Shown: in pieces, positions 14,213-14,766 of the stretch | Layout of the letters: each line of letters opens with the position of its first letter | Numbering within the stretch: position 1 is the first letter of the stretch | Sequence record: PV340574.1 | Length of the DNA stretch: 48,138 nucleotides | Direction: 5' to 3' (one strand) | From: Escherichia phage PhiR63_2 | Position numbers and translations under genes: made by a program | Notes under the pieces: model-generated | Databases searched by the model: none | Told to the model about the DNA's origin: nothing | The model's input: the letters and a program-made list of their open reading frames with translations, nothing else

Positions 14213-14556
14213 CAATGGATTATTCACAGTTAAGTGATTTTGAAATTAACAGAATGGTAGGAGACATAATTTTTAAAGGCCTTTGGGCAAGTAAACCGGA
14301 AACATCAGGGAATAACACCAACAAATGGTATTACGGAAATGCTGATACAACTTTTGAGCCATTAAATCATTTGCCTGACTACTGCAATGATCCGAGCGCT
14401 TCATGGCCGATTATTGAGAAATACAGGATTTCTATCTTAGACCAGTTAACTGAATGGTGTGTGGATGCAAAAGGCGTAAGCCCAATATTTGATACCAGAC
14501 CTCTCCGCGCCGCCATGATTGTCTTTCTCCTGATGCAGGAGGCCAATAATGCTTAG
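14209..14556 (+). CDS. Hypothetical nin-region protein (115 aa)
   Basis: ORF with GAGGAAA Shine-Dalgarno, translationally coupled to ninE; no recognised family. Confidence 0.5.
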
Positions 14557-14743
14557 CCCATCTCAATCCCTTCAATACCTGAAAGAAAGCATAGAGCGGG
14601 CTTCAATGTGCACAGAGTGGATTCTATCTAGGTTTAGCGCATACAGAAGATTGCCGGTAAAGGGCATGCCAAGCAAGTCGATGCTGCATATGCAAAAGAA
14701 TGCGCGCTGGAAGGTATGGCGAGAACACAGGTTATGTGGCTGA
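14549..14743 (+). CDS. NinF-like chimeric ORF (64 aa)
   Basis: First 18 aa ([18 protein letters not shown]) match lambda NinF as I recall it, then the sequence diverges. Confidence 0.4.
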
Positions 14744-14766
14744 AAGAGGGGGTTATTAAGGCGTGA
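14638..14766 (+). pseudogene. YbcO-like C-terminal fragment in a different frame (recombination joint)
   Basis: Frame ending at TGA 14764-14766 reads ...[29 protein letters not shown], resembling the C-terminus of DLP12 YbcO; no start codon in this frame; overlaps the rusA GTG start. Confidence 0.4.

Follow-up and report, generated by a model that had tools for sequence, protein, structure and literature searches.

A probable two-step recombination scar between ninX and rusA in the nin region of the lambda-like prophage PhiR63_2

The short stretch between ninX and rusA in Escherichia phage PhiR63_2 is very probably a non-functional scar, left by two recombination steps in the dispensable nin region of a lambda-like prophage. 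The parentage of the DNA changes abruptly at 14611/14612 and again at 14676/14677. Intact versions of the parents are available for comparison: ninX-ninF occurs in P22-like phages, and ybcO-rusA occurs in DLP12, phage 82, and PhiR34_1. Since the matches to these named parents are long and nearly identical, chance similarity is not an issue.

The window (the whole analyzed stretch of 48,138 nucleotides [nt]) is a lambda-like prophage, Escherichia phage PhiR63_2. It includes the pL and pR early regions as well as lysis, head, and tail genes, and its nin region lies between P and Q. The features relevant to the scar and its surroundings are as follows.

133-1275: integrase
10405-12002: O and P
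14215-14556, plus strand: ninX, intact (Pfam Phage_P22_NinX, 62 bits; named NinX in CFT073 and ev207)
14549-14743, plus strand: chimeric ORF of 64 codons with an ATG start, composed of ninF head, middle segment, and out-of-frame ybcO
14549-14611, plus strand: 5' remnant of ninF, 21 codons, P22/ST64T type (BLASTP, phrog_672, and DNA homology)
14612-14676: middle segment of a third origin, apparently non-coding
14658-14659: TA dinucleotide, a reused deletion endpoint with the break at 14659/14660
14677-14766, plus strand: 3' remnant of ybcO (DUF1364, His-Me finger nuclease), last 29 codons plus TGA, without a start codon
14679-14683: microhomology at joint 2, CGATG (possibly GTCGATG), from the three-way alignment
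14744-14752, plus strand: rusA ribosome-binding site AAGAGGGGG, inside the old ybcO coding sequence
14763-15125, plus strand: rusA, intact, GTG start, 120 amino acids (aa) (Pfam RusA, 82 bits; rusA in CFT073, ev207, and PhiR34_1)
15348-15731: Q
15919-17061, minus strand: porin moron of the nmpC/ompD type, intact, downstream of Q (Porin_1, 504 bits)

Several other elements of the prophage were noted. The K-12 DLP12 copy of the nmpC/ompD-type porin is broken by IS5. At the right prophage end, four genes on the minus strand (42620-46069) encode an ABC-3/ZnuA-type, sit-like metal transporter, presumably cargo or flanking DNA. An Rfam match to Lambda_thermo, the cIII thermoregulator (5212-5270, minus strand, 88.5 bits), is expected for a lambda-type pL operon. 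The ren/ninB interval carries an IS200 insertion (12346-13050) with a Y1 transposase ORF at 12438-12947 and an Rfam STnc490 match at 12356-12479; neither PhiR57_1 nor any of 56 related loci contains this insertion. In CFT073 an IS3-family element occupies this intergenic position, and K-12 DLP12 has an IS3 in renD.

The nin block upstream of the scar is also mosaic, with 98% identity to lambda in ninB, 97% to AU6Stx1 in dam-ninE, and 94% to ST64T in ninE-ninX. The chimeric ORF begins at 14549 with an ATG that overlaps the ninX stop (TAG, 14554-14556) in the sequence ATGCTTAG, which is the ninX/ninF layout of ST64T. By position, the ORF is thus placed as NinF is. The first-pass annotation, made from the sequence alone, had proposed that the ORF starts with the NinF N-terminus and then diverges. 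This is what BLASTP showed: 17 of the first 22 residues are identical to ST64T/P22 NinF, the alignment stops at residue 22, and nothing is recognizable beyond it. The same annotation had assigned the head to the lambda type; it is instead of the P22/ST64T type. At the DNA level, 14025-14611 (ninE-ninX-ninF') is 94% identical to ST64T; beyond ninF codon 21 (14611) there is no further homology to ST64T, phage L, or P22.

The ORF does not match NinF as a full-length profile. The NinF family phrog_672 covers residues 1-22 of the 64 with 21 bits; for ST64T NinF, the match spans residues 1-57 with 118.6 bits. No Pfam or NCBIfam match to the 64-aa product was obtained at E<=1, and the Cys-rich C-terminal motif of NinF (C..C ... 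C..CC) is absent from the ORF after C21.

The right-hand part of the scar comes from ybcO. The suggestion of a YbcO-like C-terminus in a different frame, with no start of its own and ending on the rusA GTG, was borne out. The tail is read in frame 3, another frame than that of the 64-aa ORF, and aligns to YbcO residues 67-96 (PDB 3g27, E=7e-13). Its 29 codons, followed by TGA, are identical at 27 of 29 positions to YbcO and to orf96 of phage 82. The Pfam YbcO profile (PF07102) is matched with 17.7 bits, below its cutoff of 29.9, at profile positions 62-92 of 92. In YbcO, a His-Me finger protein, the core lies upstream of the retained piece (PMC5714182). This His-Me finger and zinc-binding core (about residues 10-60 of 3g27) is missing, as DNA homology begins only at ybcO codon 68. 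Frame 3 has stops at 14626-14634 and contains no ATG, GTG, or TTG able to give a YbcO reading.

From 14677, the DNA of the ybcO tail is 97-99% identical to DLP12, phage 82 orf96, and PhiR34_1. The similarity continues downstream: 14677-15960 is 97% identical to ybcO(3')-rusA-ylcG-quuD-nmpC of DLP12, and the DNA from 14677 onward is 94.5% identical to orf96-rus of phage 82 and 93.6% identical to PhiR34_1. The ybcO TGA (14764-14766) overlaps the rusA GTG (14763-14765) as GTGA, in the same order as in DLP12, phage 82, and PhiR34_1. The rusA ribosome-binding site is at a position equivalent to the annotated ribosome-binding site of rus in phage 82 (X92588), and joint 2 lies upstream of it. The stop of the 64-aa ORF (TGA, 14741-14743) is directly 5' of the rusA Shine-Dalgarno sequence. 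Frameshifted ybcO pseudogenes were also seen in other E. coli (P0017-P0020). Several of them are independent, and they use the same +1 frame and the same stop as the 64-aa ORF. Such independent pseudogenes indicate that ybcO decays often in prophages.

Between the two remnants lies a 65-nt segment that belongs to neither gene. In local alignments on both strands, 14612-14676 showed no similarity above shuffled sequences to the ninF 3' part, the ybcO 5' part, ninG, or the ST64T neighbors. A diverged or inverted copy of any of these was therefore rejected as its source. Elsewhere, the segment was found only in the Stx1 phages AU6Stx1 and SH2026Stx1 and their IMG/VR relatives, at 88% identity. 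There (type B; AU6Stx1 2468-2628 and 36 IMG/VR contigs) it follows a lambda-type ninF head and precedes an AT-rich moron, which carries an oppositely oriented gene of 590 aa, and there is no ybcO downstream. The phage collection yielded only phages with the scar (type A) and Stx1 phages, and IMG/VR yielded the same two contexts plus one IS5 insertion, which lies at CTAG (14628-14631) in a single contig. Among GTDB species representatives there was one E. coli match and one chance match, and the segment was absent from other species. Thus, the pre-fusion parent of the segment was not found, and outside type A it is known solely from Stx1 phages. Searches of the scar for an Rfam family, a promoter, a terminator, or an unusual DNA or RNA fold were negative.

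These data bear on how many joints there are. A single illegitimate crossover between ninF and ybcO would make the divergent middle no more than the ORF running out of frame. By eye only the two named genes are recognizable, and from 14677 the ORF does read the ybcO tail out of frame. However, 14612-14676 matches neither parental DNA in any frame or on either strand, and Stx1 phages that lack a downstream ybcO also have this segment behind a ninF head. The single crossover is refuted by the three-way alignment, and we give it practically no credence. A single joint at 14677 would also suffice if the segment were the 3' portion of a ninF-like allele that is genuine but divergent and has a 51-aa product ("NinF2"). 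P22-like and lambda-like ninF heads both run into the segment at the same position, and in four type-B contigs a frame of 51 codons is open (VIDQNRSYEQESVERASVYTEWILSRLSAYRRLLVKDMPGKTMRTDIYENI). Against this, most type-B copies have TAA at ninF codon 4 or GTA in place of the GTG start, and the differences between types A and B in the 51-codon frame are mostly nonsynonymous. The segment lacks the CxxC...CxxC of NinF, phrog_672 matches residues 1-16 of the 51-aa product only, and the protein search revealed no such family beyond these E. coli prophages. We consider a genuine "NinF2" unlikely. Thus, the idea of a recombination scar joining the nin and DLP12-type modules holds, but the one joint initially proposed is replaced by two joints and three sources.

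Two alternatives to a by-product were weighed for the 64-codon ORF: a new small protein with a function, and a leader peptide under selection for the translation of rusA. The start of the ORF is coupled to the ninX stop, its stop lies 1 nt ahead of the rusA Shine-Dalgarno sequence, and the frame and stop that it uses recur in the frameshifted pseudogenes P0017-P0020. In addition, none of the 80 type-A IMG/VR contigs interrupts the frame, and a TGA-to-TAA change among them preserves the stop; with approximately 18 substitutions, however, a complete lack of stops has a probability of 35%. Across these contigs (22 haplotypes), 14 nonsynonymous and 4 synonymous changes were counted, plus the one stop-to-stop change, and 74% nonsynonymous changes are expected by chance for this ORF. 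Few changes are available, and they are consistent with neutrality. In a search of 5.8 billion proteins, relatives of the ORF came from E. coli only, many with different C-termini. No family was matched, and the ORF is confined to near-identical E. coli copies. Natural variants with a disrupted ORF (P0002, P0005-P0010) have truncated or replaced C-termini. The predicted mRNA fold leaves the rusA ribosome-binding site unsequestered (z = +0.77), so that coupling is not demanded. A function of the ORF is accordingly improbable. We conclude that it is most likely a by-product of the scar, the few changes giving no sign of amino-acid selection, in agreement with the first-pass annotation, which had called it chimeric and probably non-functional. 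Translation of the ORF is probable, given the P22-like overlap between its ATG and the ninX stop.

Variable sites are unevenly distributed over the scar: the ninF head (63 nt) has 8 and the ybcO tail (90 nt) has 11, but the middle (65 nt) has only 1. The low variation of the middle could reflect constraint. It is equally explained, and most simply so, if the flanks recombine homologously with intact ninF and ybcO alleles and the middle cannot.

Sequence comparison at joint 2 suggests how the fusion may have occurred. Homology to AU6Stx1 extends to 14683, and homology to ybcO begins at 14677. The intact ybcO alleles read ...CATTTTGTCGATGCTGCATAT at this joint, and the Stx-type copy reads ...GGCAAAACGATGAGG where intact ybcO reads ...CATTTTGTCGATGCTG. 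This comparison of Stx-type and intact ybcO sequences suggests that the crossover used 5-7 nt of microhomology (CGATG or GTCGATG). For joint 1, the same ninF break is common to two diverged lineages, which suggests that it preceded the ybcO fusion as an event of its own.

We propose that the two-step scar arose as follows. In the older step, ninF would have been cut after codon 21 and joined to unrelated DNA, of which 65 nt remain. In the later step, this unrelated DNA would have been joined at ybcO codon 68 through the short microhomology, and a ninB-dam-ninE-ninX block of P22/Stx type would thereby have been fused to a rusA-ylcG-Q-porin-lysis block of DLP12/phage-82 type. That joint 1 came first is our inference from the shared break. 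The losses would comprise the zinc-ribbon part of NinF and, for YbcO, all of the His-Me-finger nuclease core; both genes are accessory and dispensable. The ybcO tail may have survived because it carries the ribosome-binding site and start of rusA: only joints upstream of about 14744 would leave rusA expressible. The present joint would have been tolerated because joints farther right would presumably have silenced rusA. With an ORF ending just ahead of the rusA Shine-Dalgarno sequence, ribosome flow to rusA may have been kept incidentally, and ribosomes crossing the ORF may help rusA initiation.

The scar is widespread. The first-pass annotation had suggested looking for the same joint in related prophages, and it was found in phages, in IMG/VR contigs, and in complete E. 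coli genomes. Both joints were present at an identity of at least 99% in 584 of 5,426 complete E. coli genomes (approximately 11%). The scar was also found in 26 phage records (about 20 distinct phages, including mEp332, PhiR57_1, PhiR11_1, and ev207) and in 80 IMG/VR contigs (type A). Prophages of CFT073, Nissle 1917, UTI89, APEC O1, and many other strains match 14200-15130 at 100% identity, and 9000-21000 is 100% identical to the isolated phage PhiR57_1 except for one IS200 insertion. Because hundreds of complete genomes, obtained independently, share the identical joint with isolated phages, an assembly or sequencing artefact is excluded. mEp332 is a plaque-forming K-12 lambdoid phage (PMC3442831). 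Since isolated, plaque-forming phages carry the scar, it is compatible with a working phage. A full-length ORF shared with other phages had been named in advance as a point against a scar. The 26 phage records and 80 contigs do contain the full-length ORF, but as near-identical copies (nucleotide identity of at least 97.8%). This is shared ancestry of one joint and not conservation of a gene.

In public annotation the scar is already flagged as a pseudogene, and it is an ordinary mosaic scar. In CFT073, PGAP describes the same 90 bases as [quoted passage not shown] and leaves the 64-aa ORF unannotated. In RefSeq ev207 and in several nr entries, the ORF is named "protein ninF", a label that is not warranted. 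Our search of the literature found no paper on this joint. The scar is a handy clonal marker of a very successful prophage lineage, which is present in many B2/ExPEC strains, and it shows that joints within genes persist if the translation signals of the downstream gene are spared.

A separate phenomenon was observed within the middle segment. The break at 14659/14660, in the context CCGGTA/AAGGGCATGCC (CCGGTA/AAGGGC), has at least seven partners, each joined exactly there, and all of these partners end in TA. In six of them the right side, from 14660, is retained. It is fused to an ea22-like gene (AP043606; L130, L134), to window position 3116 in the exo/bet region (L135), to window position 6231 near ral/sieB (L136), to a 434-type cro (L132, L133), to P codon 33 (P0011, P0013), or to P codon 46 (L131). 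In the seventh (L137), the left side is retained through 14659 and joins ylcG at 15214. The events differ in the single-nucleotide polymorphism haplotype of the right flank, and these haplotypes have different intact counterparts, which speaks for independent fusions. Among 185 ybcO-tail contexts, no other breakpoint was detected in the 75 nt upstream of 14692.

TA endpoints were also found elsewhere. When all fetched loci were compared with the window, about half of 26 deletion joints, a sample collected around this locus, were clean TA joints; TA is expected for approximately 3% of random 2-nt matches. Position 3116 was used with three partners, and 11068, 18003, 15213, and 11399 with two each. 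Further TA sites in the window are 3795, 3924, 5998, 6231, 11441, 11772, 11782, 12074, 14487, 14735, 18310, and 36353. The motif GGTA/TACC occurs at 11 of 20 TA sites versus a background of 15% (P = 3e-5, a post hoc value, as the motif was chosen after seeing the data). Two defective prophages contain more than one deletion: L137 (GCA_021022895) has the joints ral/P and 14659/ylcG, both at TA, and L135 has 3116/14660 (a TA joint) and 17651/30126 (not TA). The several deletions in each show stepwise prophage erosion. In L131, an ENA metagenome scaffold, ybcO upstream of an O/P fragment mimics a duplicated ybcO; this arrangement was dismissed as an assembly artefact across Ns.

Tentatively, the TA endpoints might mark an unrecognized, sequence-preferring cleavage-and-rejoining process that erodes lambdoid prophages, although we regard this as rather doubtful. 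Candidates are a nuclease leaving 2-nt TA ends, a recombinase with a 2-bp crossover acting on pseudo-sites, and RusA-type cutting 5' of CC. RusA cuts Holliday junctions in the context TA/CC (PMC1636454), and according to the literature, Rpn nucleases lack sequence specificity. Alternatively, the endpoints may be due to random microhomology-mediated deletion with local hotspots. An origin through insertion sequences was considered and rejected. In one genome (P0009) the sequence runs into an IS21-family end inserted after GGTAAA (14661), and P0008 reaches the same IS21-family end near 14692, but the deletion derivatives are without an IS. With these IS21-family ends and the IS5 at CTAG, the scar is itself a target of IS elements. 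No inverted copy of the sequence right of 14660, as would be expected of a mobile-element end, is present in the window. A hotspot intrinsic to the Stx-type copy was likewise discarded, with no alternative contexts among 36 type-B contigs. Searches for further endpoint contexts in JGI metagenomes and for left-retaining contexts in IMG/VR gave 0 matches each. If confirmed, reused TA endpoints would bear on prophage inactivation and domestication. They are the sole thing at the scar that deserves more study; the scar itself matters little.

The two-step scar can be compared with known systems. Like NinF of lambda, P22, and ST64T, its ORF occupies the slot after ninX or ninE, has an overlapping start, and is homologous in the first 21-22 residues. 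In contrast to NinF, it lacks the C-terminal two thirds including CxxC...CxxC, it reaches no family threshold, and its remainder consists of unrelated sequence and out-of-frame ybcO. Compared with YbcO and phage 82 orf96 (PF07102, 3g27, His-Me finger group 7), the ybcO remnant likewise has a stop codon overlapping the rusA GTG, in the manner of DLP12 and phage 82, and the same rusA-ylcG-Q-porin module follows. However, the scar copy lacks residues 1-67 and the start codon and is a pseudogene fragment.

The mosaic model of lambdoid phages, with "novel joints" at module boundaries, reportedly goes back to Hendrix and Casjens. Illegitimate recombination and relaxed homologous recombination have been proposed as the mechanisms behind such joints (PMC2327257; PMC3945230). 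The scar resembles them in its sharp switches of nearest relative within the non-essential nin region, in the short microhomology at joint 2, and in being tolerated because the broken genes are dispensable. It differs in that most described joints lie between genes, whereas both of its joints lie within genes and form a three-part scar, and in that it is very common (approximately 11% of complete E. coli genomes). A further comparison is offered by rus-1 and rus-2, IS2 and IS10 insertions upstream of rusA in DLP12 that give transcription in a silent cryptic prophage (PMC1636454). Both cases involve a rearrangement within ybcO upstream of rusA that leaves the ribosome-binding site and coding sequence of rusA intact. 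In the scar, however, the upstream gene was replaced by recombination, and the nin operon is transcribed from pR.
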